Assembly: GCA_963924565.1 (NCBI GenBank)
Contig: OZ004609.1
Span: 33,046,001 to 33,110,000 of the forward strand
DNA: 64,000 bases
Direction: 5' to 3'
Source of the DNA: Ascidiella aspersa
Lineage: Eukaryota
The notes beneath the pieces were generated by a model. That model searched no databases. It was not told the origin of the DNA and saw nothing but the letters and a program-made list of their open reading frames with translations. Shown here in pieces: positions 2,458-61,280 of this stretch; position 1 is the stretch's first letter; each line of letters opens with the position of its first letter. The translations under genes and the position numbers were made by a program.

Positions 2458-5400
2458 ATGACATGGAAATTGGAAACTTCGTTTAGTGATTTTAAGCACA
2501 TCTTTCGGCGCTTAAAGTTTGTACTATTAGTATATGCCATTGGGGCATATGTATGCTTACAGCAGATTATTTACAAATATGTCTATATTACCAAGAATAC
2601 GAAAAATGTTGATTGCTTAAAAGACGAAACAGAAAAGCCTCAAGGTATGGTCTCCATTTGATATGATTTATATAAAGTTGCAACCTGAATATAAATGGTT
2701 TTAAAAGTGGTTTGCCAAATAATAAACACAATTCTGTTAAAGCAAATAAATAATAATGGCTCAGGTTAAGTCATATCACTCAGTTTAAAGGTGTTTTTTA
2801 GACAATACAAACGTTTTGTGTTCAGCCTAAGCAAATATTGTTGACTTTATTATTCTCAAAATGTTTTTTTTAATATTTCACAAAAAGTCTTGTTATTTCT
2901 ATTGTTTTTCTAAAAATCTTATGTAGTTAGGGTTATTTTGTTGATGGAATGGATGAAGGGCATCAGCCCTTGCCTTTGGTTTAGAAAACAAATTACTTCA
3001 AAATACATCTTCTATTTTTAGATGAAAGAGTTGCGATTGTAACAGGAGGTTCTTCAGGAATTGGTCAGGCCAGTGTTAAGAAGTTGTTAAACCTGGGGTA
3101 CGTTGTAATTTCAGCCTCAAGAAACCATTGTGAAAGAGGTAGTTAACTTTACTATTTATTTACATATGACTTTAGGCAGTTGTTACCAGACTGAAGCCTG
3201 TGGGCCTTCTCTGGCCTTATATACCTAAAATATCATCATTAGTTGTTTGTTTACAAATAAGTTTGTTAGTTACAAATCTAAACAAAATTTTAACGAAATT
3301 TTTAAAAAAACAATAATTTTGTAAAGCTTTATTTTGTCAATGCATGATTTGTTTTTCGTGCATTTTACAGTAATAAAGTCACAAATGTTTTGAACTAAAT
3401 TTTATCTGGCCTGCACTTTTAGTCCTTTTTGTTACCGGCCCTTTATAAAAATGTTTCAAAGCAATCTTCAAACATGAGTGATAAATAAAAATACAAATCA
3501 ATATTATCTATGTTTAATGGTAAAAATAGCGGCCCAAATAGACGTTAAAAGCGACATGCTTTTTATACCGATGTGGCCTTCATATCACTGATGATGGCAT
3601 TAGAATTTGCCGAAACGTGATCCGTATATAGTGTTCCAAAATGTTATCTATGATTTTAAAGTCATCTTTTAATATTATAGTTGTTAATTATATAATAGCT
3701 TTTCCTTTTCAGTTTTTGTCAAATATTCTGAGTAATGTATTTATGCTTTAGAATTATTTCCTACTGAAGAGAATTACCATGAACTTTTTTTAAATCTTGC
3801 TGACCAGGAAAGTGTTGTTGATTTTGCCAACCATATTAAGAAAAACTATGAAAAAATTGATTTGCTTCTTAACTGTGGTAAGATTGCACAACAGCAAATA
3901 TTTATGTGTCATTCCAAATACATATACCAGAGTGAAATAAACTATCTTTTTTAGCTTTGTTCAATATTATGAATCAAGCAAAATGTTTGATATTATGTTT
4001 ACTCTTTTTTAGGGTTTTACATTTATGGCCAACATTTTATTAACATTAGTGATCATAAAGTACATTATCAAGCTATGGTAGCTGCATTATGTTTACCCTT
4101 TAAAATATACCAGTAGGCCTATACTTATGATTGATTTGAGAATGGATTTTCTTTTATTAGTATTGCAAAGCTCAAAGCCTATATTTTTTACAGCTGGTGT
4201 TATGTTTGTCCCATTGCAAATGGCAAGTAAAAATGTGGAAAATCATGTGGCAATCAACTACCAGGGTCATTTCTTGCTGGTGAAACTATTGCTACATCAT
4301 CTTACCAAGGCCCAGGATTCTTGCGTAATCAACTTGACATCTTCTACAGCTTGGTTGTGCACCGAAAATACTCCTGAACTATTTAGTACTCCAACCACTA
4401 AGTAACTACCTTTGGCTAGTACTCTAGATTTTATTTTTAAATGTTTGTTTTACAGTGTTCTAATGACTTAAGTCAGTCAAAGAAAATTGTTTTAATTAAG
4501 TATTACTGGTATACAAAATAGGGTTACTTGTTTTAATGTTTGTACATACAATGTATTGCCTGCTGTTGCATTTTTGATATTTCTTTAGTTGAATTATTGC
4601 TCAGAATAAAGAGGTATTTGTTTACCAATATCAGTACTATAATGTTTAATTTTTATGACAAGGAATTGACATGGAATTGACTTTCTCTAATTATGACTCG
4701 AACTATCCTAAAAGACTTAACTTGGACTTACGTTGTTTTATGAATGACTTGACTTGTACTTAAGTCATTTCAAAATGACTTGTTTACAACCCTGAAGTTT
4801 GATTTTGTTACAGTTCAGCTTACCAGCCCAATTTCAAAGGTTGTGTTGCATCAAGTATTTTCAAATCTCATTTCAGATCTTATTCTCCCCATGCTTCATA
4901 TGCAGCAAGCAAGATGATGCTTATTCTATTCACCTACAAACTGCAGAATAATTTGAAGTTTACTGATGGTCACGTTAATGCCGTAGTCTATGATCCTGGG
5001 ACAGTTTTAACACCACTTTACCAACATTCTGGTTCACTGTTTAATTTTTTTATGTGGATGTTTGGAAAAATATTACTGAGGGTAAGTGTATGAATATTGA
5101 TAATTTGAATGTACCTATGATTATGGTGTTACTTTAGTCTTTTAAATAAATTATCCACATTAGATTTGAATGACCATTTAAACCTAAATAAGATTATCTA
5201 AAATTTAGATAAAGTTATATAAAAAATAGCTTGGATTTTTTTCTTCATGGTTAAAATATTTCTAAATATTGTGTAAGAAGAATTTTATTTTCTAATATTA
5301 AAAATAACCTAAAACTATTTTTTTGTAAATCATGTTATTCTAGACTCCAGATGAAGCAGCAGATGATATTGAACACATATTGAAGAATGACAAACCAAAA

Positions 5401-7397: not shown

Positions 7398-10300
7398 ATG
7401 GGATTTAAGGCAAGAGGCAGCATAAGAAAGAAAATCATTCCCATTTTATTTCTTCTTTCTGGAGGAATTTTGTTCTACACATACCAGCGGTGTTCTACTC
7501 ATGGTTTGTTACGTGTTTTTTTCTCTTTTTTGATTTAATTTGTTCTGCAGTAAATAAGTGTAAACCATGACAGCTCTTAAGTCTGTAATGATTAACACTG
7601 GAAAATAGCAATTTAAAGTAAAAACACTGTTTTGTTTGCGAAGGTGCTGTAAACTACTACTTGCCTATATAGATTTGTTACTACTGTCTTGTAAAATGCA
7701 ATTATGTTTTTTAAGCAATCATTTCAAACTTTGTATTTCACAGCACTGGAATTCTGATTTGTTTGTTTTATGTTGTTGACCAACAAAACCTTTCTGTTAA
7801 TTGCAGATGGATTTGTGCAACGTTTGTACAATCACAGACACATCCGCTCTGAAGGAGGTAGATTAAAATTTGATGTTCAAACATGTTTGTTTGTTTGTAC
7901 TTTGTTAGTGCATAAAATCCCCTAGTTATAACATGTTTTATCTTTGTGCTATATAATTTACAGATAGCTGAATTTTTTTGTTGTCCCAGTATTATTGTTC
8001 TTGGGTAAAGCCCAAAGCTATATAACACGTTCTTTACTATATTAAGTATAGGCTTTGTTCCAGTAATTTAGTTGTGTTCCTTTGGGAGCATTTATCCAAT
8101 TGATCTTGAAAGGGCGCATTGATTTTTAAAGCTATTCCTTGTAAATCCGTGACGGATATATATGCTCAGCAGCTTACAATTTACCACTGCCTTTATGCTT
8201 AGTAGTTTATATCTTTTGCATCAATACTAAATAAGAGTGTGATCTTAAGTCTGATTGCACAATATAAATTAGAAGACTGCAAAATAATTTTGTTAAATTT
8301 GTAATGTTGAATACCTTTACCACAATGGTTAACTGTTTTCAGTTAAAAAAACGTGTGCATACCTTTTATTACCATCTTTAATTACTGTTGTTGTAAGCAA
8401 ATTTATGAATAGGTTTTGTAATGTGTTTGTATATTGACAGCTACAACAACAAACACTTCTGGAAACCATTCAAGCACCAGTCATAACAGTAAGTTGCAAA
8501 CATGCTTTTCATGCAATTTACTCAGTGGTACTTCAGCTTTTAAGCTTACTGCACACAAATAAAACAAAAAACAAGTCGCTGTACACAGGATTTTAATTGA
8601 GTACGAAACTGCATTAAAAAAACTCCCTTACTATATGGCAAGGGATAAATGCATTGTGTTTATTTCAGTCTTGCATTTTGCTGCTGGATGTTGATTTTGT
8701 AAAGTGAATAGTTTTTCACAAATTACATAAAGTCTGTGACCCATTCCCGAAACTATAAGGGCACATTGCACATAATTCACTGAGTTGAACTATAAACTAC
8801 TTTTGAGTTTATTTAACTGTGTTTGTTAAAGTTTTTTTTTATCTCGGTTTCAACAACTAAAACTACGCTGAAGGACAAAACAATGTTTTTTCTCAATTTG
8901 TCATATGTTAAGGTTGTGCCCAGCAGCTATAAACAGTACCTGTACATAGTGGTTTACCAATGCACTTTGTTTGATTAGATGTGCGATACCAAGTGGCCCA
9001 GGTGAACTGGGAAAGGGTTTCAAACCCTTACTTGATCTCTGTATGGATTATTTTCGCTGGACTTGCAAAACTTGGTGAGTTATAGTCATAATCTTAAACC
9101 TGAAAAAATGCCTATAATTGAATGGCATAAATGAAAACAATTTTTTTTTTATTTAACTTTAATTACAATGTTTTTATTTCTTCAACCTAAACTTCATTTA
9201 ATGCTTAAAAATTATTCATATGATGTTTAGTTTCAACTAGAGTTGTACTACCCGAATAGCATTTAACCTATTAACTGCTCAGGATATTTTTCCTATCTGA
9301 TAACTGTGTTACTGTTGAGTGATTTTCCAATCATATATTTACATAAATTGTGAAAGATTTATAGCTAGTCTAAAAATAGATTTTTATTATCCAGTTCACC
9401 GATTAACTTAAAACAAATATCGGTATCCTACATTATCAATATCTGAATCAAGCCCTGGTTTCAACTAACTTATTTTATTTTATACATGGCTTTTAACAGA
9501 CACACTTTTTTACACTTTTTACGAAGTAGATAAACTATAAAATTATCGCTTACACCAAGGCGATTTATTTCTTTATGGGCTGGTTCCTTATCTTAGTTTT
9601 CTGATAATAAAGCAAATATTAGCTAAAGACACAATTTTCTTAAGTAAACATTCATACATTAGCATGAAAAAGAGTTTTTCAATTCTATTTATTTTTTAGG
9701 TTTCCACCTAATTCATAGAGTAGTGAAACGGGTGCCAGAGAGTTGTATTCTGATCTGTGTGGGGCTGATAGTGGGTGGCGTGGCCTACTCAATCGACCGG
9801 AACCACCACATAGAACAGCTCCTTTTCAATCCCGACACCTTTTTCCTTTTTATTCTGCCTCCTATTGTGATGGAGGCTGGATATTTCATGCCCAAGGAGC
9901 CCTTCTTTGAAAACCTTGGCACCATCCTAACTTATGCAATCATCGGAACTGTGTTTAACGCCATGGCTATCGGCGGATCGCTGTATGCTGTCTATTCGTG
10001 GCAGTGGATGCCCTGTAAGTAAATATTGATTTGTGGTGTTTTATCGCTGTTTTATATTAGTGGTTGGTCCTCAACCCCAACCATTTTAAAACCACCCGGG
10101 CATTGAAGAAATAAAAAATTACCTGCCTCAGCTTTTTGACTCATAACATAAAAATTGCTTGCGACACTCTTAGTAGTATTTTACCAAATTAGTTTTTACT
10201 GTAATGCTGCAATCAACCAAATTAAATAATAAACATCGTCTGTGTACAATGAAGGGAAATAATTTTTAATTAATTGTATCCAATCGCGCATATATAATTG

Positions 10301-13300
10301 TATCTTAAAAGCCAAGCTTTGAGAAGCTAACAAACTTTAAAAGTGCAAAATGTTGTTTAGCACGCTTTACTACTAGACACTCTTCCCTGTTTGACAATCA
10401 CTGCATTGGTTGATGTGGTCACATAGATAGAATCAATCAGTCTAGTTTCTGTTGCATTACTGTTACCTTACATTGGGACATGTTTAAAACCCAAATAAAA
10501 TTAAAAGTGTAAAAAGTGCATTATAATCCAGAGCAAATCAGAGACTTATAAATAGGTTGCCTGTTTGAGTACTAACGCTTTGTTTAATCGCATACATTGC
10601 ATAGTTTACCGAACCATTAAACCTTATGTGCCTGCCGGCATGCTAGATTTATGCAAGTTTGCAGAACGTTAAATTCTGTGCTTTAATGGACATATATAGA
10701 AATATAGGTGTATATATATTAGGAAAAAATATGTTTATTCAACTAACTAATTATGCTTTAAATAAATCAATATCATCCAAAACTAAGGTCAGACACTGAA
10801 AATAAAAAATTAAAACATTGACGCCACTGTTTTTTGCTAATTACACAAAACTAGTGCAGTTAAACTTTGAGTTAAATTTTTTTGCTTAAAGATTATGTGT
10901 CAATTTGTAAAATCTATTTTTCTGATCAGACATAGTTAAAAAGATATTTCAAGATTGTTGTATTTTGTTGTTAGACCTAGACGTGGAACTTACAGTGTTG
11001 CAGTGCCTTTTGTTTGGAAGTATAATTTCGGCCGTAGATCCGGTTGCCGTTATTTCTGTGTTCGAGGAAATTCATGTCAACACTGTCCTTTACATTTGCG
11101 TTTTCGGTGAATCACTTCTTAACGATGGAGTGGCCGTGGTAAGTTTCTAATAAAATATCCCCTTTGTCTAACTACAGTAATAGAAGATCTTTGTTTAAAT
11201 TGTTGCTTCTTTGATCAAAAGACGAAGTTTAAGTATCAATCTTTACAACTTGCTTTTCAATTTTGATTAAAATAAACACACATTTTTCTGCTTTTTAAAC
11301 AAGAAAAAAACAGATATCAAACAAGTACAAGAAAGAGTTTCACAGCAATTATATATATTATATTGATGTGCATAACCAGTTATAAATCAAATCAGTTTTA
11401 TTTTCGTAGATATTTCATAAAGGTTTTAGATTTCCTTAACAATACCACGCTTAAAAAATAAAAATTTGCTTAAAATTCTTTGTACCATATTCAATTTATT
11501 ATTGCTACCATTTAACACCGTAATGTTCTAACCAAATGAAGCAGTGTAGCTTGCTTTAGAGTCAAAAGTTTAAAGTCAGTGTCCCCTATAAAATAGTGTG
11601 AACTCATTCAAGGCTACCATTCTTCTGGGAATTGTGTACTGCACTCTGGCCCTCACATTTCCTTTCATGAGGAAGCATGTGGTAGACTGTAATTGATTTA
11701 GTTAAAAATGACTGTGATGTACTGAAGTCATTTGCCAGTGTGAGGTTTTAAACTTCATTCTCACTCTATACAATTTTATAATGTATTATTTCTTAGGGGT
11801 GGAAATAAATAGTGTATCAAATTACATGACCTTGTCATGTATTATCTTAACCTTTGATTTTTTCAAACATTTTTAAACAGTTGTTCTGCATAATAATGAT
11901 AATTTGTTTTTGAAGACAATAATTTTTTTTATTGATTGTGTTACTTAAACATATTATATTATGTCTTGCTATAACCTCCAAATATGTTGCTTTAAACATA
12001 TTCCTTGTGTGTATTTATTCTGCCTTGCTATAGGTAGATTTGCTGACTGTAGATTAAATGTTAATGATATGAAGTAAAAGTTAAAATTATTTATTTTAAA
12101 CACTCTTTTGTGTGATGTTTACATATATGTATCATTTGAACAATAAAATCAGTCAGCCATAGTTTGCTTCTACTGCATATAGCCACATCCTGTTCAACAC
12201 TGAATAAAACATCAACAATCATTTTTAGTTTGGTCAATCAACACATTTTGGCTTTGTTTCAGGGATAACATCCCTTAAAACTATTTTAAATGGATGGTAA
12301 ATATCAATGAAAATATGGTTGCTGTGCTATTCGTCAAACAACCCAGTCCAGTACTAAACATCCTGTATTATAATTTAGCAGACTATGTGTGCATAACCAT
12401 GCTTTGTAGCTTCTGGCAATGTTTAATCATGATAAGGCAAGATTATGTTTCTTGGACCTTGTTCAATGTTCATAGCATGAAACACATTTTTATATTTATA
12501 TATATAAAATTATGTATATATATATATATACCTTTTTATTTAATTTAGGCCATGGCAAAACGGAAGTATATTTTTTAGCTCTTTCATCAATATGAATAAT
12601 TGCACTACTTCAGTCATTTGCAAAAATAGGAATTTGATTTTTTTTTTTTAATTAAAGTTTTAATTACACAGGTGTAATTTCGTTTCCACCTTTAAGATAT
12701 TGTTTTTCTTGTCAAACGTGCAAAGGGGTCAGTCATGCCATAAAACAGTCTAATTGGATTTTGTGTTTTGTAACTACCCACCAATGTCATTTTTTAATAA
12801 TATTTTTCAGGTTCTGTTCAAAATGTTTGAGGGATACATACACATTGGCGAGAAAAACATCATTGGAATCGACATCGTGGCAGCGATTGCATCTTTTTTT
12901 GTTGTTGCTGGTGGCGGCCTGTTCATCGGAATATTTTTCGGCTACCTCGGCTCTTTTATTACAAAGTACACGGTGCACAATCGAATCATCGAGCCCACTT
13001 TCATTTTCGTTATCTGCTACATGGCTTATCTCACCGCTGAGCTCTTTCATTTGTCTGGAATCATAGCGTGAGTTTTGAAAAGCAATTTATTATGTAATTT
13101 TCATTCAACAGGAAACTCTTGGCATTTTAATCTTATGTCGAATGCTTAAGGTCATATGTCACTTTGAGATATCCTGAGAATTTACATATAAAAAATAAGA
13201 TCTCCAAGCAGAAAGAATATGAACAGCTGGCTGTATGTTGGCATTTTATTTCAAAAACATGTTTTCCAACACCAGTGTACATGGTTGAAAACTGATTGTG

Positions 13301-25300: not shown

Positions 25301-28300
25301 GTTCCTTTACGGTAGCAAGCACGGCGTTTTTTATCTTCAAAATAAAAAAAAATTATTATGTTAACAAGCGTCATTTACCCGAAATCACACCGGAATAATG
25401 CACAAAGTAACTGTTCGTTTCAAGTCGCGAGCACGGTGTGTCTGACGCCATCATTGATATGCACGCTCTGGAGATCCAGAACCGATCAAAGGCTGCCGTC
25501 AGAACAGAGGAAGACGCCGACTTCCATCACGTGCTCGAGCAGAACATGTACAAGCCAAGATCGAGGGTTTGTTCGGTGTTTTTTTATACAGAATTGTCGT
25601 TGTATCTTGCGCTGGTCATACTTATATATAAGTTGCAAATCAGGTTCGCTTATTCCGTGCAGGTTTACAATTTTTTTAAAAAACTTGGTTAGATATTTTT
25701 TTTAATATTAAACTGGCTCTGCTGTATCTAGCGCAAAGTTGTAACCTTTTGCTCCACACTTTTCAGCTTTTGTTCATTAAAAAATCAACAAAAAGCTATA
25801 AATAATCAAGACTGTCAGCGTTTGGAAAACGACAACGCTTTCCTTTGGTATTTAATGTATAAGAATCTAGAATCAAATCAACCTTTTTTAAGCCGCTTTT
25901 CGAAAATCGGTGAATAGACTTACACACACCGGCAATAAAGTAAATAGCACGCATCAAATGAAACGTTTTCTTTTTACAATTCTGTCAAAAAGGACACGAA
26001 TTGTAATATCCTTTCAGATTTCATTCCACGTTTTATCAAACAACTCTCATCGATAAGCCAGCTATAATTTTTGCAGACAGACATACAAAACTTAAGATTT
26101 GTTTAAAAAGCCCCTTACTAAATCAAAATATATATAACATTTATTCATCAAAATTTAAACTAAACAAACTGCTTTAGGTTATTTATTTTAAATTCGAATC
26201 ATTCCAATCAGTTTTTTTCAAATTTACCGCCTCCTATTAAAAGAAAGACTTTCCCAAAAAAGCATATTTTTTGCGTTTTAATAAAAAAATACCTAGTATT
26301 TAAAACGTATATTTGTAAAGTCCTTTCCCGCCGTTTGTTGTTTATTGAAATACTCTATTAAAAATGTTGCCGAAAAGTACAAAGTTTAACTCGAGAAATT
26401 TGTTTCTAAAACAACTCCTTAACACCGTGAGAGAAGCTTAATTTTATTTCCAACCCATCAATTCCATTTCCCTCCCATTTAAAGGAAACGACTCGTCACC
26501 GTCGCGGTTACATAGACGAGGACACGACACGTAAGAAGCAGGAACAAGAGATTCTGATCAGACACAAGATCCACCAAAAGCAACGACGACATAAGCATTA
26601 CAAGCACAAACACAATAGGCATAAGGTGAAGCAAGTGTGTCCGTTTACAAGCTGTTTTAATAGTGGTTATGTCAAGACTGTTTATAAAAAAACAGGTATA
26701 AAACATAAAATAATTTCGCTTTAAAAATCAGTTTCTTTTTAGGAAATGATTTTATGTTTTGTAGCATTAAATTAAAAGATTTCGTATTTGCGTAATGAAC
26801 TTCATACCAAAATACAGATCAATAAGAACCTTGCTTTGAATCAGATGAGTACTTAGAAAGTTAAATGTAAACTGAAAAAAAAAAAACTCTAGGACTGATC
26901 AACAACGACAAAAATGTATAGTTCCTTTTTTAGGAAACGGTTCCTCTAAAGTTTTAAGATTTTTTCTTTCCTGATATTTTTTAACTGTATTATGTTATGC
27001 CGATTTATTTAGTTTTTCAACTGTTTCGCACACGCGTAACCTTATATTTGTTGACGATTTAGCAACGATCGGGGTCCAGAGCCGGAGGTATGTCTACTTC
27101 AGCGAGCGGCAAACAAATCAGAAGAGGTATATGGTGTAAAAAATTGTTCGGGCATTTGAAACCAAGTCGATAACGCTCGATCACTTTTTCTCCGGTCTCG
27201 CATTAGTTTAAAACGGCCTTTTTGGATTATCCACTTTTTATTTTGACTGAAAATGTACATTTCGGTGTTTTTTTTAATTCCAAACTTTGTTGCCTATCGT
27301 CCCTTTAAGTTTTTTTTATTTACAGCTTGGTTCGTTTGTTGTAAATGCTTGCTATTGGCAAACGTTCAGCTCAAATTTGTGGCATTCATTTCAACCTGGT
27401 TAAAAATTTCATTTGTTTGGTATGCTCTTCACTATTTATAGCATCAGACGTAACTTTTATTTTTATTTTTTTATTAATGATAAGTAATCCGACGAAAGAT
27501 GTTAATTAATTACTCCTAGTAGCTAGTTTGGTCTAAAAAGTAATAACCATAAAACTTATGTTTTTTATGACAGGTTTAAAACAAATTTCAGTGGCAAAAT
27601 CACAATTAAATTCTTATTATTAAGACTTCTTTAAATTTTCTCACTCTATTTAGATGTCTTGTTAGTAAGCACGACATGGTAGCAAATCGAATAAAATGTA
27701 GGGTTATGAAGTATTTCATGCATGGGTAATTTCTGCGGTGATCTGCGAAATAACCTCCTCATTCAATCTATAAAATTATATATATAACTAATGATAATTT
27801 CTGACAAAGCAAAATTAGTCATTAATATAACCTAATAACCATTAACACTAAAATTGTTTTAACATAAGAGTGGTAATACCAGTGTTGTAAACAAGTCATT
27901 TTGAAATGGCTTTAGTCCCAGTCAAGTTATTTGTAAAATAACTTCGGTCCAAGTCCAGTCTTTTCAAATGAATAACAAATGAAGTCCCAGTCAGGACATA
28001 ATTCAGGCAAGTCAACTCCACGTCGATTCGTTGTCATTAAGATTAAATATTAAACTGTTAAAATTATTAAAATTGTCCGATTATATGAGCAATAAATCGA
28101 TTGCAAAATAACAAAACCGCATTTAAAGCAAGCAAATTGTTTTTATGCAAAAATTAATACAAATACTCCAATTTTATAAAAAAAATTGCCTAATGAAAAC
28201 ATTTTATGTCAACCTAATTCATTTGTCCAAAAGACTTAACGTAAAGCCATTAAAGGACAACGACGTAAGTGCACTTAATTTTAGTCATTGGCTTACGTCA

Positions 28301-37873: not shown

Positions 37874-40800
37874 TTAGGTACGCTTTGTCGCGGACGGACT
37901 TGTAAGTTCCTGAAGCATTCTTTCCACGTCAGTTGTCATCTGCTGGTAAAAAAGCAAAACAATAATTGTTTTAATCGTTACTAGGAAAACTTTGTTATTT
38001 TAAAACATTTTTTTATCAAAAAATTGTCATTTTCCTAGTTATTTTAAAACATTATTTACACAAAAAATTGTCATTTTCCTAGTTTTTATAATGTAGAAAT
38101 ATCAAATTAGGTTGTACAATAATTTAACTCGGTGTGCTAACGTGCTCTGATTTAATGGGATTTTCAAGTCTTAAAATTGTTAATCATACAGATAATACTA
38201 CTACTTACTGCATATTTACAGACTATCGATCATTAGATTATAGACAGAAACATGCAAGCTTCTTTTCACGGTGGAACAAGGCTTTGATTTAATTGTTAAA
38301 TTTTCATTCATGCTTATGTGGTAATTATATAATAGTGAGGATGCCATGCATATGTTAAGGTGGACTATACAAAGTAACAGTCTAAAACTTAACATTTTTA
38401 TTACGGTAATAAACTTAAAATATTAAGAACATATTTCAGAACTTTAAATTATATAATTTATCTAGCCTGTTATGTCAAACTTAAAGGAGTTTTCAAAAGG
38501 GCCGTTCTTTAACAGTGTAAGTTCACATTTTAAACATACAGTTACAAGGGTCCCCTTTCCGCTGGTTGTGTTTAGTTCGAAATTGCAGACTAAACTGCTG
38601 CTTAAAAAGCAAGACCAGTCGGTCGCTGTTCATAGTGGCAGCATCCGCCTGCTGAATTTAAGATGTACCTGTGCGCTGACTGCACTTTTACTTGCCGATC
38701 GTTGCCTGTGGCTGCTCAACGGAGAATCGGGAAATTGAAGCGACGAGGTTTTGTGGAATTCCAGGTTGATATTTACTTGGTTCATTTCGCCCGATTTTGT
38801 CGCTAAAGTTTTCACAAAAAAAAAACGGTAACAGTACCGACAATGACATGCACACTTCATGCTTCTGAATATTTAGCGTTAGATATTTGGGGGAGAACAG
38901 GCATTCAAGATTAGATAGTGTTGATTCTAGCAAGCACTTAAAACCTATACAGGGCAAGCATTTTTTTTTAATTTTCTAAAATAACTATATGTTACATAAT
39001 TTTGAAATGCAACGGTTACTTCTAAGAAAATATACATATCACTGAATTATTTCTGCTTCTTTTAGCAGGAGTTAAGTATCGTATCATATTTCAAGTTAAA
39101 AGTTAGGCATTGTGGTAGTATTAGGATATATACAAATACAAGGTATTCATGCATTTATAACAAAAGAGTATTACAATTTCTTCTTAGTCAATAGGTTCAC
39201 TAAAAAAACTAATTTACCCCGAGCAAAAACGAAAAATAAATGAATCAGTTGACTTTTATGTCAAGAGTCTTCTAAGATTGCAAAACGTGCTGCTTAAATT
39301 GTAAATAAGGATTTATTACCACGATACCGTCATTTTGCTACAAAAACTTGAATCAATAAAAAAAAATTGATTTAATTTCCCCAAAAACCCAGTAACTAGT
39401 ACAATTGGACTATCCTCTTCCAAAAAATATTGCATTTGCTTATTTACATTCAAAGTTTTTCATAAGATTAATTATAAGGCTTTCACATCTGAACGACTCA
39501 AATTTAAACAATATTTTTTTATGCAACTTAACAGTTGAACAACCCACTTTTAACCAAAGAGCATTTAAACAGCCTAAATTAGAAAAAAAAAATTAGAAAA
39601 TTAGGCAACGCATATTTAAACAGATAAACTATAAACAACAAATAATTAAACAGCTTAGCTCAAAGAAACGAACACTTATACAACTAAGTATTTTCAAACA
39701 TATAAATATGGAAAATTTACGCAACGCCTTTTTGCGCAATCCACTTTTACGTAGTCACACCTAAATAACTAACATTATTTATACCACGCACCTTTCTGCT
39801 TTTGAATTTTAGATTGCTTAAGAAAACCAACTAACATTTAATAAACAAGGCAGTTTAACACAAAGGTACCTTTAACAGCGGCCTCCCGCTTATAAGATTC
39901 CAACATCTTGTCAACATCCACCGACTCTACCACCTTGGCTCCGTGCTTCTTCTTCGGAGCGTTTGTTCCGGAGCTGGTGGCTTTGATCTTCTTCCCGAAT
40001 CCTACCTTGCTCTTGTGACGCTTCACCTTCTCCGCTGGGTGGGGCTCTTCAGCCACTTTCGCCACTTCCCTGTGAAACAAAGTTTTCCGAATTTTATTTC
40101 TGATGTTACTTTTTCTTTCGCCTCTTAAGATCTTGAATTCAAATGAACTTCAATGAAAAACGGAGATGAGTCCACTACAGCATTTAGTTTAAAATACAAT
40201 TTTTTTTTCACCTTTATGCGAATTATTACATCTCCTAAAATACAACACCTTTTAATGCAGTTCATATTTAAGCTTAAAAAAGCACTTATAGATGCATTTT
40301 TAAAACTCTGTTCCATCTAGTATTCGAAGTCGAAGTCGGACTCGGGACTCAAGTAAGACTTTACGTCATACTCAGGTTACCCAAATTTAAAATCCGACGT
40401 GCACCTTGAACGGAATAAGCGGGACGCAAAATTGCAGTTGAGAGTATAATCGGGATTTCTAGTTAAATGCCTAGCCTTGTTAAACTGTTATAGGACTTAT
40501 TGTGCGCCTGAACTTTTCGTTTATCTTGTTTCATTTTACTACACTAATAAAACAATACTTCATGAAAAATGTAGCAAAAATAACTCAAAAGAAAAGTAGG
40601 GAAGAGGTTTGGATAAACCAGGCGTACATTACCCGACAAAAAGTGCCTTACACTGTCGTAGTTGAAAAGAAGAATGACCTCGAACGTTTTAAATATAGTT
40701 TATTCCTACCTCACCAAAAAAAGGTCAATTTAATTCAGATTTAATAAATGTATATATATATATATATATATACACTAATCCAGTGTTAAAAAATGACTAA

Positions 40801-43800
40801 TTTCTATCTGTGCTCTAAAATAAATTTCAAATGGTGGTAATACATAGAACCGGTTATTACTAATCACCTTATCCTTCTTCAAAATATTAGATTCTAGAGC
40901 TCGGTATGGGTAACGCAAGCACTTACTGTTGTTTAGGGGGGCTCTTGACCCGCACCGGTTCCTGTTTCTTCGGTATAGAGCTGACGGGAGCGATTAGTCC
41001 TTGCAACGCTGCCCTCTTCAAGATGTCCTTCGCCGCCAACGAGTCATTCCGGTCGAACTGTTTATAACAAACGATCGCGCTGATTAAGGTGGAATTTAGT
41101 GTTTTGAACCCATGATCCTGCTAAGAACAGCTTTTTAAGAATGACGCCTGTTTTAGTGATAAGCTGTTGTTATTTTAAAACAAACAAAAAAAGATGTGTA
41201 ACAGTAAACTTTTTTGTGTAGATATTTAAACTAATTTTAATATGCTAGGCTTGCTAGATTAAAGAATTCGAAAACCTTGCCAATGTTTAATCGCTATCTA
41301 TTAAAACTTGTTATCATGAAGAGAGGGCGAAACCTTATTAAGTCCAAACGACTGCAAAAACTAGCCATCTTGGGTAGGACGAGAGAAAAGTCTCTAAACG
41401 TTGAAAAATTTTGCCAAACAAAAAAGGAAAATTTTGCCAACAAAAAATTACCAATTAAAGTACTGCAAACTGATTGATTCTAAGCTTTTGATCTTTTATA
41501 CTGGCCAATAGGAACTAAAATAACAGCAAAAACTTATCAATGTAAATCAACAGCAAAATTTTCTTTTCAATTATACAAGTGGTCGTGGATCCAGTCAAAA
41601 TTTGAACTGGCCACAATCCACAGAAGCACCAAAAGCTTGCTAATGCAAATAAGTCACACACTAATGAAGTCGATATTTCGATTTTTGGATAAAAAAAAAC
41701 CTACATAGCAGCATAAAAAAAAAACAAATACGGGGGACAGTTTATAAAATAGCGATCACACTCACCTCTCAAGTTAGGGTATCGAAAAAAAATGTCAAGT
41801 TCTCGGACATTCCTAATGCAAACTATAGCCAACTTGAAATGTCTGCGACCCGAGGTGGCAGCAAACCCAGGCAACAGTTGATAACAGCAGCCATTACTCA
41901 CTTCTCTAGAAAGCACAGCAATGAAGCATCCATTCATCCCAGGAGTCTGACGCATCCTCAGGAAATTCTGCTTCAGTGCCTGCGCCTTCTGCCCTCTAGG
42001 GACCACCACAGTCTCCCTCTCCCCGTCTCTGACGTCATTGGAGGTGAGGGGCAGCGTGGGCGGGCAGACCCGGAACGGCCGGGCGCCCTCCCCCGTGTCA
42101 CGGTGCCATCGGGTGGCGCTGTTGACCGCTTGTTCGTTTTCTGCTGGGTGGATGCTGCGAGTGGCGTAAACCACTGCCTGGACGCTCGGCACTAAGTGGA
42201 AAGAATGGAGGAGTCGTTTGCGTTGGTAAATGGATAGCACCGATGGTTGGTTGCGAACACTCCTTACTCCTTTCGTGTTTCTTAATTTTTGTTCTCCCAA
42301 TTTTTAATTTTAAGGTTAATTTCGTTAAGTTCACATCCAAAAATTTTATTTAGGCTTAACGATTAAGAACGCAGTTTTTAGTCTTTTATAAAAAAAAAAT
42401 GCCTTCTGTAGTCATCCGGTGCAGTTTTTATTTTCCCTTTAAGGATCAGGTATATGCATGTCATTCTATTAGATCGGCCTTTTATTTTGTTAAAAAGGTA
42501 TCATTTTCATAAGGCATTTAACATTTTCTTTAAAAGTTCTCCACTGTAGCATCTTGTTTAAAATATGAGAATTTTTCTCCAAAGCGCAGTTTATATTTAC
42601 ATAAAAAAAACCTGTAGGTTCATTTTTTATCCATACGTTTCACCTCGTATCCTAGTTTTCAACCTTTAAAAAATCAGGTCGGAGTCGGACTCGGGACTCA
42701 AGTAAGGCTAAACGTCATACTCAGATTATCCGATTTCCGAATCCGACTTGCGCATGCGCAAAACCAAATTCGAAACCGACAAGACCGCAAATTGTAAATC
42801 ACAAAGGTGTAACAGCATATCGAACAAATTACATCCACGTATAGTGGGTTGTTTTAAGTCTAAAATTAAATAAAATCTTACCTTTTAGCGCTGCCTTTAG
42901 CACCTCGAGGTGCGACTTTCCGCATTCTGTGGCTCGGTTGTGTCGCTCTCCGTGCGAGAGATCGCGCAGCACAGAGAAGTTCTCGCTGTCGCCCTCGTTC
43001 AGCATGAAGTCGACCGGGTTGGCGACGGCTGTGCGCGTGCACTGCGGAGTCACCAACACCACTTTGACGCGCGAGAAACGAGAGTCGCGCTTTAGGTCCA
43101 GGTTCTCGAAGCGGTCGTTTAGCAACTTCACGTCTGCGAGGAATTGTTTTTAGGTAAAATCGACTGTTTGTTTGACAGTGGGGGGTTGGTATGAAAGCGG
43201 TAAGACTCGAATGTTTGCAAGTTGAATGAAATTCATATCTGCGTACCAGTGTTGTAATGACTTAAGTCATTGACTTCATTGACTTGACTTAAGTCTTTTG
43301 ACCAAAATAACTAGACTTGACATAAGTCTTTTGGACAAATGACTTGACTTGGACTTAAGTCATTTTATCAAATAACTTGGGATAAAATTAATTGTTTTTT
43401 TATAAAATTGTTCTCAATTTATCTCTGTTTTGTACATTAAACACTTTTATTGCTGTATATTGCGTTTGTGTTGTTTTATTAGTTAAATTGTTGCTTATAA
43501 TAATCGAACGAGTTTACCAATTTTACTAGTTTAACGTTTCATTTTTATGTCAATGACATGACTTGAAATTGACTTGCTCTCATAAGGAAATTACTGGGAC
43601 TTTACTTGCGCAACCGATGACTTGGACTGGGACTTGACTTGTTATTTTTGCAAAAGACTTGACTGGGACTTAAAATTTACTTGTTTACAACACTGCTGCG
43701 TACCATTTAGTCTCCTTTATTGTTATGCCTTTTAAACGTATCGACATAATACTTTGAAAATAAATCACAAATATTTTTCGATATGTTTTAAATTCGACCA

Positions 43801-46800
43801 TATAGTTATTCGTCATTCGGTTTAGGCCAGAGGTTCCCAACGTGGGCGGTACCGCCCCCTTGTGGGCGTTGGCGACTTACAAGGGGGCGTTTTGGGTCTT
43901 TTTCTAATTTGGGGGGCGCTGAACGCACATAAGGGGGCGTTACATGAAAGTACTGATGGCAAAATTTTGTAAAAGGTTCACATAAAAATAGTAACAAACA
44001 GCATTGTAGGTAACTTTTAGCCTTATGGCAACTTCCGTACTGCGAACTTGTAGTAATTTCCCGACCATTGTTACGTAATAATTGGCTTTCTTATATTAAG
44101 TTGTTTGTTGCGTTTCACCGTTTTATACGCGGCAAAATGTTTGTATATTTAAAGCAGGGCTCGCCGCCGGATTCGGCCAGCCGCGCCCCTATGACAACTA
44201 GACATGAGTTCATTTCAAATACTTTTTGACTATTTTACGTTTAGTACGGTAGAAAAATTTTAGCGCTTCGCGCGAATGATCTTTCTACGTCCGGCTTGTT
44301 TACACATTTTGAAGCTGTTTCTGGACTAGATCAGCGCTTCTTTACCGTTGCACCGTGGAAGGCTACCAAGTGCGTCACGGAAAAACGGAAAACGTATTAA
44401 AAATATTACACATATATTTTTAACATTTTTTTGGCAATGTAATAACAAAAACTAGCAGGAAATTTAAGAGAAATGCCGGTATACCCCCAAAAATCGCGCT
44501 CGCTTCCCTCGCCAGGTGCGCCCGGACTTAAAAGATTAACAAACACTGCACTATCTATTAAGGTTAACGCGTTTCCTAAAAGCAGCTTTATTACACTTTT
44601 CATTAGTAGTATGGATGAAACAATGCGGCCAACGGAGACCTTTCTGAGTTTGGTTGGCGACTAGAAAAGGTTGCCGACCCCTGATTTAAATTTTCCTGGT
44701 AATGACATAACCTGGTGAAATAATGTATCTATAAATTCCCACAGTGAATGTATGTTAGACAACCTAAAATATGACTGACAGCTTATCGAAACGAAAGTGA
44801 AGACAATATGATGTTAGACAACGATTAATATAATACTTTACTGTAAAACAAGATGAGGGTGGGCGATATGAAATAATATTGAGCCCAAGGGGGCACTAGT
44901 GTAAAAAAGGTTGGGAAACACTGGTTTAGGCGGCCGTAAGCATCGGACATTCCCTACACTTACTTTTCAATCCGAGTTGCTTCAGCAGTCCATTGAGTTG
45001 TTCCCTGTGTGCGTCACTTCGCACTCCGCAAGCATACACGGTCGGTCTTCGCATCGAATCATCAGTTTCTTCATTTGATTCGCTGTTTCCTTCCAGCAGC
45101 AAGTTGGAGTTGCGCGTTAGGGGATTCCCGTACATCAGCTGCTTCGCTTCGACGCGTTTTCTTGTGACGCTAAAGTCGGTCGAAAAATAAAAGACTTTTT
45201 TAAAAAAGTAATTCATTTTCCAATCTTTTTTTTTTTTTATTGTGGCACAAAAACAAAATTAACCCGATTGACAATTTTTTTCCTTTTATTGATCAAGTAA
45301 GTAATGTTTTTTTTTTTTCTTTGTAAAAGTGAAACGTTCAAAGAACTTGTTAAATGGTTATTTGGCAAAATTTGCGGCTTAAGTTCCTGAATTATATTGA
45401 TATCGGATCGGTAACGATACGACCCTAGTATTGGACGAGTACAAATACTACCACTCGGGAACGGGTATCGGCTCCGATCCGATATTATCGGACATCCCTA
45501 CAGAGACAGGTTGAGCCTCTCAACCGAATCTGTTCTAACTTACTTGTGCAGATAGACGGCGAGGTGCGCGGTTGTGAGTCCTGACAAAACGTCGGTGTGG
45601 AGCAAGTCGCACTCGTCGTCCTCTGTAAGCAGAGCAGCCACCGACTTCACGGCCAGACTGCTCGTCTTGTCCTGAACGTATAACAACAGCTTATTCGTGA
45701 CTTCGTGGCCTGCCATTAAATTTAACTACACCAATACTAAGAATTCCCCACTATTTATCATTAGTGGCCCAAAAAACAATAGGCAGACTCTGTTGACCAC
45801 GGTACTGCTTACGAATTAAAAAAAATCAATATTTCACAATTAATTATATGCATAGTTTTACTCTATTAATTTTGTGCTATTACCAGCTGCCTAAAATTTA
45901 AAAGCAAAACGATCCCAGACTGGTACTTTCATTGAATAGCAACGAAGTGGATAAGCTCAGAAAATCCTCTAAACTCGTTCCCTAGGCCAGTTTTTGACCT
46001 TAGTGTACATGGAAATAAGTTTTAGGCGTCAGTAGAAATATTTGCATTGTTTTTGTGAGGGCTTTAAAATGAAACCTCTAAGTCTAACATAATGCCGTGA
46101 ATAGACTTTGTTTAATTAAAATTTTTACATAGTGCTAATTGGTAGCCTACCCCTGTGTACAAAATAACCGTTTTCAGTTGATCCTCCCATGGTCCTTTTT
46201 ATTGGCAACGTCTTTATTTAAAGAAAGGATGTTGAAAACGTGCTATTCAATTTTGTTGCCAAGTTAAAGATTTTTTTTTTCATTTTTTTTATAGACAGAG
46301 AAAGAAAGTTTTGAACAAGTTTTCAAAAAAGGTTACATTTAGGAAACAAAGATGCTTGTAAAATCGCCGAATTTTGCTAGAATTCACCTTATCTGCGTTT
46401 GAGGTTTTGCAAACACGTTTTTCGCGTAGACGTACGTTTGCTTTTGACAAATATTACTAGTTAACTAAGCTTTTGTGTCTCCTAACTAAGCTTTGCCAAA
46501 AAATCCCATGTAATTTAGTATTACATCCTCCAATATTATTTTAGTATAGTTATGCGCATGTAACCAAAGGCACAGCGCGTTATAAAAGATTTATCAAACT
46601 TTACTTTTACAATCTGTTTCATGTTGTTCTATCCCCAAAAGCGACATCTCAGTTGAGTCAAAATATAGGTTTTCGGGCCTAATAGAAGGAGTGGTAGACG
46701 GGAAATGCATTCCTGTGTTTCTTCTGTAAACTGTTTATACATCGCGACGCTTCAATTGCTATGCGGTGTATTAACGGCGCCACAACTGCTGCCTTACGGC

Positions 46801-49800
46801 AAATTTATCCGTTTTTTATTGCCAAAACATTTTCATGGTTTTAGTCAATATCCGACTTTTTGTGAACCAACAATAGATTTGGGTCTGAGGTCAGGACACA
46901 AATTACTGTTCAAGTTTTGTGCGCAGGCGTCACAAATCTCGGGAATTGTCATGTTTTGGCCACACAAAGTGTTATGTATTATTATTTATCGTCGTTTACC
47001 ACGTACTTTTACGCTTCAGTGATTACGTGTTATCGCGCCATTGATTCTTGTTTTGCATTCGTGGCGCTATCTAAACGTGCTCGCTTCAACTTGCTACTTG
47101 TTAGACTTGTACTCGAAAGTAAACGCACTCAGTTAATCTGAGAACACAACAAATTGGCGACGAGGATGGGATCCATGCGATCTGCATATTTATTTTAATC
47201 TCCGCGATCAAAATAAAAGTTTACTGAAGAAAAAGAGTACAAAAGAAAATGGCTACTAAAGAACTAGTGGAACTGTTCAAGCACCAGCTCGAAGAGCAGA
47301 AGAAACACATAAGTAGGCAAGCTGCTCAATTGGAGGAACAAAAGGCACATTCTGCTGCTCAGCTCGAAGAGCAGAAGATACACATAAGTAGACACATGGA
47401 GGAACAAAAGGCACGTCACAGAAAAGAACTGGATGAACAATATTCCAGAAACAACGAGCAAATGGCAAGCTTTATGGAAACTCTCCAAAAATTTGCAGCT
47501 GGCAAAAGTGTTTCCCAGCCTGAAGCTTCATTTCCAATCAGCACGGTGCCAAATTTTGCCCAGTTTGAACCAACCATGGAACTGTGGACAGATTATTACA
47601 ACCGGTTTTTGACATTTGTAGGTGCACATTCTGTTCCTGGTAATAAAATACCACAAGTGTTTTTGACTAACCAGTCTGCAGTTGTGTATAAGCTTCTACA
47701 GAATCTTGCAACCCAACAACAACCATCAAAAGATATCAATGAGCTCACTATGGATAATATCATAACCTTTATGGCAGAGCAATTTGACCCAAAAAGGTTT
47801 GTTGTTAGAGAACGGTTCAAGTTCTGGAGTGAAATGCATCGGAAACCCGGCGAAAGTGTAAATGAATTGGCAGCAAGAATTCGCCAAGATGCTATTACAT
47901 GCGATTTTGCTTCAATTAAGAATCCACAAGATGATGCCATGTGTACAAGGTTTATCTGTTCAATAAAAAATGAAGCAGTTTTAAAGGCTATTTTCAAGGT
48001 GCAACAAGGGCTGACATTTTCCAAGGCAATACAAATAGCTCTTGAGACTGAAGATGCAGCCAAAGTGGCAAAAGAGACCGCTATGGGCAACATATTTACC
48101 CCTTCCGTTGAAGCAAATGTTGTAAGGGAAAAGAAAAATGTGGAAGTGAAGACCTCTCGTAATTTTGTCAAAGGTCCACCATGTGGTAGATGTGGTCGAA
48201 AGGGTCATTCAGGTACAACCTGCTTTCACAAAAACTCTATATGTCATTTTTGTAAAAATAAAGGACATCTTGAATCTGTCTGTTTCAAAAAGAAGAAGAG
48301 CCAAGTGAAATCCATCACCAAGCGCAGTGTTTTGCAAACCGTCAAAGCTATTAATTCAACTGGCAAACTGCAACAAGAAGTCAATATTGATGGTCGCACA
48401 TTTAGATTTGAAGTTGACACTGGAGCTGGTGAGAATTTTATTTCCAAAGAAAGATGGCAAGAGCTTGGCAAACCCACACTATATCAAAGCAACTTGTATT
48501 TTGAGTCTGCATCTGGACACAAGTTACCTACACTTGGTGTATTCGAACCAAGGCAAGTAAGTGCTAATAGCAAGGTAATTGATGTTCCAGTTAAATTTAT
48601 CGTCACCCATATTTCTAATCTTAATCTTTTGGGTCGGAGTGGAATTTCTAAATTAGGGATATCTATTGATGCGCTGATGCAACTGAATGGCTGTAAATCT
48701 AAAATTAGTAATGTTACGCCAGTTAGTATCAGTGGTTCACATAAATCTTTACAACTTGCATGTGAACAGCTCTGTAATGAATTTCCGAATTTATTTACAC
48801 CTGGATTGGGTTGTTTGAAAGATTTTGAACTTGATATTAGGTTTAAAACTAATGCAAAGCCTATTTTTTGTAAACCTCGACCAGTGCCCTTTGCATTACA
48901 AGAACATCTGGCACAAGCCTATGAGGCAGGTATAGCAAAAGGTGTTTGGGAGAAATCTCAATTTAATGATTATGGGACTCCTGTGGTGCCTGTGTGGAAA
49001 AAGCGATTACCGGGACAGGAAAACCGACCTATTCGTGTTTGTGGGGATTATTCTGTTACTGTAAATCCACAATTAGAAATCCATCGGCAACCACTTCCCT
49101 TACCTGAAGATTTAATGCGCCAACTTGGGGGTGGACATGGTTTTAGTAAAATTGATTTGGCTGATGCCTATAACCAGATTTTACTTAGTCCACGGAGCCA
49201 AAAGAGGCTTGCATTAAGTACGCATAAAGGGGTATTACTTCAAAAGCGACTTCCTTTTGGAATAAGTTCTGCGCCTGGATATTTTCAAGAAATTATGGGA
49301 CAGCTAACCTCTGACTTAACAGGTGTAGCTGTTTATTTAGATGATATTTTGGTAAGTGGGTCAACTGCTGAAGAACACCTGCAAAACCTCCGCGCACTTT
49401 TGCAGCGACTTCAAGACAGAGGATTGAAATGCAAACAACAAAAGTGTGTGTTTGCGCAACCCAGTGTTGAATATCTTGGACATACGTTGTCACAAGTAGG
49501 AATTAGAAAAGGACAAAAGGTGAGTGCAGTATTGAAAATGCCTGCACCAAAAGACTTAGCTACTCTACGTTCTTTTCTTGGTTGTGTTCAGTTTTATAAC
49601 AAGTTTTTGCCAAACTTAGCTACTGTGTCTGAACCTCTTTACAGGCTTACCCGTAAAGGAACTAAGTGGGATTGGGGTAAAAGCCAAGAGGCTGCTTTCA
49701 ACAATTTGAAAGAAATGTTATGTGCAGATACTGTTCTGGCACATTTTGACCCTTCATTAAAAATAGGGGTTTCTTGTGATGCATCTAACGTAGGGATCGG

Positions 49801-60279: not shown

Positions 60280-61280
60280 CCATTTTGCAGAAAGCACATC
60301 AACATAAATTGGAACATATTTTATCAAACGAATAAAGGAAATCATTTGTGACAATTGCGCCCAAGTTGAACTTTATCTGAAAGCTTCTTAGTTTGTTTTC
60401 GATTGTTGAATTGTAGAGGTTGCGGTATATGCTTTTCCAAGGCAAACCTGCACTTCCGCAACCTTAGATACGGTGCCATTCTAATTAAGCTCTAGGAGAA
60501 AGCGGGCTGTTGTTGTATTTGTTTGTAAACCGGTTTGGTGGAGTTTTACTGGTGTGGAAATCTTTTTATTTAATGTTTCGGTTCTATACGATCGTGACGT
60601 TGTTAGGCAACCTGAACCCATTCTTCTGGGAGACTCGATATTAATTTAATGAATTGGTCAAAATCTGTGTTGTTCGATGGAAAGTTAATTTTATTTGCCA
60701 ATGCGTCATATTGTAGGTACTCGCCGTTTATATTTAACAAGTCCTGGTGAAAAATAATACTAGATTGGATGAGCGATGGCGTAAAAAAACATTTGAATGG
60801 TATTTTATTTTTTATTTAGCTAAAGCGGACGGTCTTTGGATTTATGATTTCTAAGTGCTGTTCGTACGCCGTTATTGCGCAACGTAATGTTACCAGCGGG
60901 AGTCGCCTTGTACTACATTGTTTGTTCCTATGGTCCCATCAAGGAACGCTTCTAGTCTGTTGTTTTGGCGAAAATAAGGACCTTCGATTTGTTTCCAATC
61001 AGCCTCCGCATTTTCGTCGAGTTAGATCCATTTCGTATGTTAGGCTAACAAGTAATTATCGATGTTGATCATGTCTGTAAAATCCTCATCACTACCCGAT
61101 AGAAATACTGTGATGTCGTTAGCAAATAGAGGCGCTTTAAATCCCTTGTCATTTATCTTGATGCCGTTGTAGAGACCCTGTCTTAACGCAGCAGCAAGGC
61201 ATTCAATACACAGGACGAATAAAGTTGGAAAGAGAGGATCTCCTTGGCGTACGCCACGTTACATAACTGTTCTTGATGCA
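60280..61280 (-). pseudogene. Decayed L1/Tx1-clade non-LTR retrotransposon ORF2 fragment
   Basis: Minus strand 61260-61090 reads RGVRQGDPLFPTLFVLCIECLAAALRQGLYNGIKINDKGFKAPLFANDITVFLS (RT motifs 4-5, with YADD degenerated to FAND), flanked by stops. Further on, DLLNINGEYLQY...FIKLISSLPEEW and CAFC resemble the L1/Tx1 C-terminus. Confidence 0.8.

Follow-up and report, generated by a model that had tools for sequence, protein, structure and literature searches.

Among the sequences sampled, arginine is the usual residue of NSUN7 outside vertebrates at the site where NSUN m5C methyltransferases carry their nucleophilic cysteine. NSUN7 of the ascidian Ascidiella aspersa, encoded in the window analysed here (64,000 nucleotides of contig OZ004609.1, positions 33,046,001 to 33,110,000 of the forward strand), has this arginine in place of the cysteine. 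Our best reading is that the protein is a pseudoenzyme, the active-site arginine of which is maintained by selection, since three of four active-site residues are lost, the gene is intact and spliced, and variation in the exons that encode the motifs is silent only. The initial annotation had already proposed a pseudoenzyme, and our data support this proposal.

The ascidian NSUN7 gene and its active site

The NSUN7 coding region occupies positions 37874 to 58652 of the window on the minus strand. Its 16 exons all have GT-AG ends and form a single open frame of 806 amino acids, which together with a spliced contig from run X3 bears out the earlier claim of an intact reading frame over 16 exons. 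The X3 contig (2460 bases) lacks the intron of 690 bases that separates the two motif exons, and its RNA origin is inferred from this splicing, the kind of run not being on record. Pieces of the contig place on exons 12, 11, 10, 8, 4 and 1, with gaps equal to the lengths of the intervening exons, so that exons 1 to 13 and part of exon 14 agree with it, by place or by length. The transcript extends to at least 58987. Coding exon 1 (58630-58652) starts with the ATG at 58652 and has its donor at 58630 according to the contig, which rules out a candidate first exon with an ATG at 58853 that lies outside the tree columns anyway. The reading frame and contig gap lengths define exon 2 (58477-58544), exon 3 (57814-57974), exon 5 (57086-57144), exon 6 (56643-56813) and exon 7 (55193-55305). 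Frame and direct contig matches define exon 4 (57394-57625), which encodes an N-terminal helical domain, exon 8 (54373-54556), with an NSUN5-type ferredoxin-like domain (PF21148, weak and below cut-off), exon 10 (44964-45169), exon 11 (42882-43133), with motif IV, and exon 12 (41902-42191), with motif VI (PF01189, weak and below cut-off). Exon 9 (45544-45671), which contains a degenerate motif I, follows from the frame, and exon 13 (40927-41057) from the frame and a loose end of the contig. Exon 14 (39870-40069) is placed by frame and encodes a lysine-rich tail, which the Phallusia protein model predicts with low confidence. Exons 15 (38669-38802) and 16 (37874-37942, with the stop codon) lie outside the spliced contig and were placed by splice signals and by resemblance, judged by eye, to the Phallusia tail. 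Over the tree columns, the protein is 75% identical to Phallusia NSUN7. Exon 12 has a single match in the genome. Exon 10 carries an extended acidic insert, which follows motif I in ascidian NSUN7 proteins.

Motif IV reads VLVTPQCTR (43059-43033, minus strand). By translation and alignment to NSUN5, it has Thr477 (ACT, 43048-43050) in place of the aspartate, and it retains the motif IV cysteine as Cys480 (TGC, 43039-43041). Motif VI reads VVYATRSIH (42174-42148, minus strand), and translation, contigs of three runs and alignment all give Arg544 (CGC, 42157-42159) in place of the nucleophile. Both replacements are thus found where the initial annotation had placed them, and the mammalian motifs that it named, LLLPRC and YCTCS, agree with retrieved sequences. 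In motif I (45573-45599, minus strand, coordinates derived by counting along the exon translation), alignment to the NSUN5 encoded in the same genome shows His362 in place of the aspartate and Thr370 in place of the active-site lysine. The motif IV and VI positions can be considered equivalent to those of NSUN5, because in the alignment of a 32-sequence NSUN7 profile to human NSUN5 (PDB 2B9E, E 7e-58) they match LDPSCSG and YSTCS..EENE with no gaps. NSUN6 has four strictly conserved active-site residues, Lys248, Asp323, Cys326 and Cys373, and its Cys373Ala and Asp323Ala mutants are inactive (PMC5499824). Three of these four are lost in ascidian NSUN7, and the counterpart of Cys326 alone is kept. 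Elsewhere in this genome, the NSUN genes identified retain Asp-x-x-Cys, and the three with a visible motif VI also retain Thr-Cys. Of the features of active NSUN/RsmB m5C methyltransferases, the motif VI cysteine, the motif IV aspartate and the motif I aspartate and lysine are therefore absent, and the motif IV cysteine is present. Judged by sequence, the protein is an NSUN7 ortholog that these three absences place outside the active m5C methyltransferases.

The codon CGC is one transition from TGC, and the initial annotation had warned that a single base separates the two. Contigs discard rare variants, which leaves room for minor editing. Nevertheless, we regard it as barely credible that the arginine reflects a decaying gene, an assembly error, a rare allele or a codon that is edited back to cysteine. 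The recommended check of base 42159 gave CGC in contigs of all three runs (X1, X2 and the spliced X3), which carry no alternative letter in the arginine codon, although X1 is possibly the source of the assembly, and X2 and X3 have many differences from the window in common. The differences listed fully explain the contigs that cover this codon (0/0 for X1, 4/4 for X2, 10/10 for X3), and at the threonine codon all four X3 differences fall elsewhere. Arginine is present in all 18 tunicate-type sequences, six of them named (including the window) and 12 unnamed and assigned by best hit, which removes error and rare allele as explanations. A second tunicate-type gene has CGC in 4/4 metagenome loci, which represent one haplotype. 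All 14 X3 differences in exons 11 and 12 are silent, against an expected fraction of 0.245 (p ~3e-9, assuming uniform changes and ignoring transition bias). Among five further differences listed in exons 10 and 13, two are amino-acid replacements, and these fall in the acidic insert. Broken frame, splicing loss and neutral variation, the features of a pseudogene, were not found, and a pseudoenzyme under selection remains our best reading.

The window contains other features besides NSUN7. Intron 8 harbors a full-length LTR retrotransposon (46970-51677, plus strand), antisense to the gene and a passenger that forms no part of the protein. It has the Ty3/Gypsy domain order, with protease, reverse transcriptase, RNase H and integrase in a stop-free frame of 1410 codons. 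Its LTRs are identical, and a target duplication of 5 bases flanks the element. Of 17 matches in the genome, 16 reach 93-100% identity across almost the full probe, and run X3 contains a 4402-base contig of the element, which is a very recent insertion. Exons of a short-chain dehydrogenase (weak Pfam hits) lie at ~3700-5100 on the plus strand and those of a Na+/H+ exchanger gene (PF00999) at ~9660-26700 on the same strand, and a reverse-transcriptase fragment (61040-61258, minus strand, PF00078, weak) lies upstream of NSUN7.

Arginine at the nucleophile site outside vertebrates

Sequence searches and name look-ups for 30 proteins gave 298 aligned NSUN7 sequences, with motif VI readable in 265. 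The survey drew on 150 of 579 representatives, and isoforms are counted in the tallies. In the alignment of invertebrate motif VI suggested by the initial annotation, none of the 53 named non-vertebrate sequences has cysteine, and 41 have arginine. The nucleophile loss that had been noted for this gene is therefore real, but it is not peculiar to the lineage, as arginine is typical of non-vertebrate NSUN7. Arginine-type groups are tunicates, amphioxus, molluscs, annelids and zoosporic fungi. All six named tunicates (window included) and all three named zoosporic fungi have arginine, as do two of three amphioxus sequences (the third has Ser). The 35 named spiralians have 30 Arg, 2 His, 2 Tyr and 1 Thr, the echinoderms and hemichordate Leu, Leu, Ser and His, and the two arthropods His. 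Histidine occupies the site in insects, Lingula and a hemichordate, and Leu, Ser, Asn, Tyr, Thr, Phe and Gln also occur, so the site is not always basic. Named vertebrates have cysteine in 91 of 103 sequences, the remainder being Ser, Tyr or Arg. Among 106 unnamed sequences, cysteine is found in 1 of 47 with a non-vertebrate best hit and in 41 of 59 with a vertebrate best hit, although two of the latter, P0168 and P0182, appear to be non-vertebrate (P0168 is placed with tunicates). The one exception among the 47, P0164, groups with insects and lacks both the cysteine and the aspartate of motif IV. It is the sole non-vertebrate-type sequence with a motif VI cysteine, and where it comes from is relevant to which way the site changed between cysteine and arginine. 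Among the sequences gathered, which cover 150 of 579 representatives, none is a named NSUN7 from a cnidarian, sponge, ctenophore or choanoflagellate. The Atlas has NSUN7 and NSUN5 clusters.

A purely structural or protein-scaffold role, with an arginine that merely packs the fold and makes no contact with RNA, would fit the variation of the motif VI residue among lineages, and mouse work suggests a protein hub role (PMC12785897). We consider this unlikely, because a basic residue, Arg or His, occupies the site in 46 of the 53 named non-vertebrate sequences, and mouse NSUN7 cross-links to RNA (PMC12001970).

Within vertebrates, the motif VI cysteine has been lost independently, to Tyr in four toothed whales (P0242, P0253, P0254, P0256), to Ser in two galliform birds (P0031, P0266) and to Arg in a clade of teleost copies (P0051, P0087). 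A divergent second vertebrate lineage (P0104 and P0142, from Latimeria and Pleurodeles) has Gly in place of the motif IV cysteine, and the coelacanth has both kinds. Amphioxus, too, has two kinds of NSUN7 (P0296, P0112).

Neither the motif I lysine nor the motif IV aspartate is a common state in any animal NSUN7 sampled. The motif IV cysteine is kept in 12/12 tunicate-type, 52/54 spiralian-type and 138/147 vertebrate-type sequences, and lost in fungi, insects and echinoderms. A dead active site leaves the good conservation of this cysteine unexplained. It is conceivable that NSUN7 has remained an enzyme and that its site is rearranged, so that the motif IV cysteine serves as nucleophile as in DNMT2 while the arginine orients the cytosine, or that some other chemistry takes place. 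DNMT2 indeed employs a motif IV cysteine together with arginine residues (PMC2836557), and the title of one paper names a re-arranged site. This explanation is highly unlikely in our judgment, as animals have lost the motif I aspartate and lysine and the motif IV aspartate, the mouse and human domains are reported not to bind SAM (PMC12804707), fungi, insects and echinoderms lack the motif IV cysteine itself, and C382A mice are, according to second-hand accounts, fertile (PMC12785897, PMC13663535).

The fungal-type NSUN7-like sequences (P0167, P0189 and P0190 from Olpidium, Rhizophlyctis and Geranomyces, and also P0186, P0193 and P0149) share the motif VI arginine with the ascidian protein in these three named genera. 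Unlike it, they have kept Asp or Glu as well as Lys in motif I, together with an acidic motif IV residue, and both cysteines are missing. Because of the retained residues, they may still bind SAM, and could represent an intermediate that binds SAM and does not methylate. All three named genera are zoosporic, which fits a flagellar link of NSUN7.

Direction of the change between cysteine and arginine

Trees were built without the motif columns and rooted with two NSUN5 sequences, using LG+G4 for 49 rows and further trees of 71 and 69 rows, hand-picked from the 298, of which the 69-row tree came from a quick search. The branching of NSUN7 tracks the species tree, with fungi, arthropods, spiralians, ambulacrarians and amphioxus, then tunicates and vertebrates. 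Supports in the 49-row tree are 98/98 for tunicates with vertebrates and 96/98 for vertebrates. The window protein is sister to Phallusia NSUN7 (100/99). With two outgroups, the fungal NSUN7-like proteins cluster with animal NSUN7 against NSUN5 (100/100). AU tests with 43 rows reject hidden paralogy in which vertebrate NSUN7 would branch outside the rest (p 0.0036 for a non-vertebrate clade, p 0.031 for a clade of invertebrate animals); the groups in these tests were defined after inspection of the trees.

Parsimony explains the motif VI site with 17 steps when changes are free and with 20 when a return to cysteine is forbidden, and in 100/100 bootstrap trees examined this prohibition costs 1 to 4 additional steps. 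Reversible amino-acid models give arginine a probability of 0.83-0.998 at the NSUN7 root and of 0.73-0.996 at the tunicate-vertebrate node. Three-state asymmetric models are about equal on two trees (AIC without and with regain 99.4 vs 98.4, and 103.3 vs 103.7), and on a 156-row tree the model without regain is better (132.6 vs 136.7). They never estimate a direct rate from Arg to Cys above zero, and in the fits without regain, exit from Arg is about 12 to 14 times slower than from Cys. Codon mutation-selection models are 0.9 to 2.1 log units better with a cysteine backbone from which the site repeatedly changed to a favored Arg or His. These models are our own and treat a single column, with synonymous rate and stem length fixed. 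A firm claim of ancestral arginine is not upheld, as repeated loss fits equally well or better under the asymmetric and codon models.

Parsimony and reversible models favor regain, and codon models slightly favor repeated loss. Regain of the vertebrate cysteine has, from these sequences, an even chance at best. In the history that includes it, arginine would have replaced the nucleophile before animals and fungi split, NSUN7 would since have been a flagellum-linked, non-catalytic RNA binder, the SAM site would have decayed later in animals, and cysteine would have returned secondarily from arginine in the stem lineage of vertebrates, giving a site that resembles an active one but has at no time worked as such in vertebrates. 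We put the whole of this history slightly below an even chance. Under regain and repeated loss alike, arginine and not cysteine is stable outside vertebrates, and the vertebrate cysteine is itself labile.

A probable non-catalytic role of NSUN7

Mouse sperm tails need NSUN7. That NSUN7 is inactive in mammals is already published. According to Li et al. (2025, PMC12804707), mouse and human NSUN7 do not bind SAM, and knockouts show no m5C change. The authors ascribe the inactivity to an Asp-to-Leu change (the vertebrate motif IV aspartate is replaced by Leu, Val or Thr), consider vertebrates only and describe both motifs as retained; in the text searched, the word "invertebrate" occurs 0 times. 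Mouse NSUN7 binds RNA by CLIP (Guseva et al., 2025, PMC12001970), and the two studies report opposite changes of target mRNA levels in mouse knockouts. Planarian nsun-7 is reported to be expressed in areas of mechanosensory neurons (PMC12132226). Neither the motif VI arginine nor a fungal NSUN7 was found reported in the literature that we searched, though older family phylogenies and pictured alignments may already show the arginine. Nucleophile loss across the family, conservation of the arginine and a possible vertebrate regain appear to be new.

Mouse and human NSUN7 resemble the ascidian protein in being orthologs (98/98), in the lost motif IV aspartate and degenerate motif I, in a long disordered tail, and in the non-catalytic reading. 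They differ from it at motif VI, where vertebrates mostly have cysteine and the ascidian, like most non-vertebrates sampled, has arginine. NSUN5/Rcm1 (PDB 2B9E) is nearest among solved proteins in both sequence and fold, with the ferredoxin-like and Rossmann layout in common; unlike NSUN7, NSUN5, including the copy in this genome, keeps the motif I aspartate and lysine, the motif IV aspartate and both cysteines. The fold match comes from an AlphaFold model (pLDDT 75.9) of the Phallusia ortholog, which has the same Thr and Arg as the window's own protein, with human NSUN5 as top match of the overall fold (E 4.7e-18). From this model, an NSUN5-like fold is predicted to be retained in ascidian NSUN7. 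A search of solved structures with a single exon gave chance hits only.

In NSUN enzymes, the motif VI cysteine attacks C6 of the cytosine, and the motif IV aspartate binds SAM and cytosine (PMC2836557, PMC5499824). With both absent, neither C6 attack nor SAM binding should be able to proceed. No covalent bond to C6 would form, and SAM would stay unbound. The retained fold could still dock on RNA and leave it unmodified. Arginine, or the histidine of some lineages, would add positive charge to the emptied pocket, where the arginine might hold a phosphate or base non-covalently or substitute for the lost motif I lysine. By analogy with mouse, the targets would be mRNAs for axoneme and flagellar parts, and ascidian NSUN7 is presumed on the same basis to bind RNA and to act in sperm or flagella. 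Taken together, we consider it quite likely that this intact, spliced protein, for which the four missing residues predict an inability to bind SAM or to methylate cytosine, is a non-catalytic RNA-binding protein that acts in the building of sperm flagella or cilia. As arginine is found at the cysteine site in most invertebrate and flagellated-fungus relatives sampled, this role is likely ancient.

Since both cysteines are present in mammals, many reviews count NSUN7 among the m5C writers, and methylation of eRNA, mRNA and circRNA by NSUN7 is still cited (PMC12564306). Cancer and enhancer-RNA papers depend on this assignment. The comparative pattern is independent support for the two 2025 mouse studies that argue for inactivity, since most non-vertebrate NSUN7 sampled should be incapable of NSUN chemistry and is nonetheless conserved. 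Arg544 and the fungal proteins, natural intermediates that have a SAM site and neither cysteine, make a non-catalytic mechanism testable, and the sperm of Ascidiella aspersa are easy to study. If the vertebrate cysteine is a regain, NSUN7 would be an unusual pseudoenzyme that has re-acquired a catalytic-looking residue and thereby misled its annotation.
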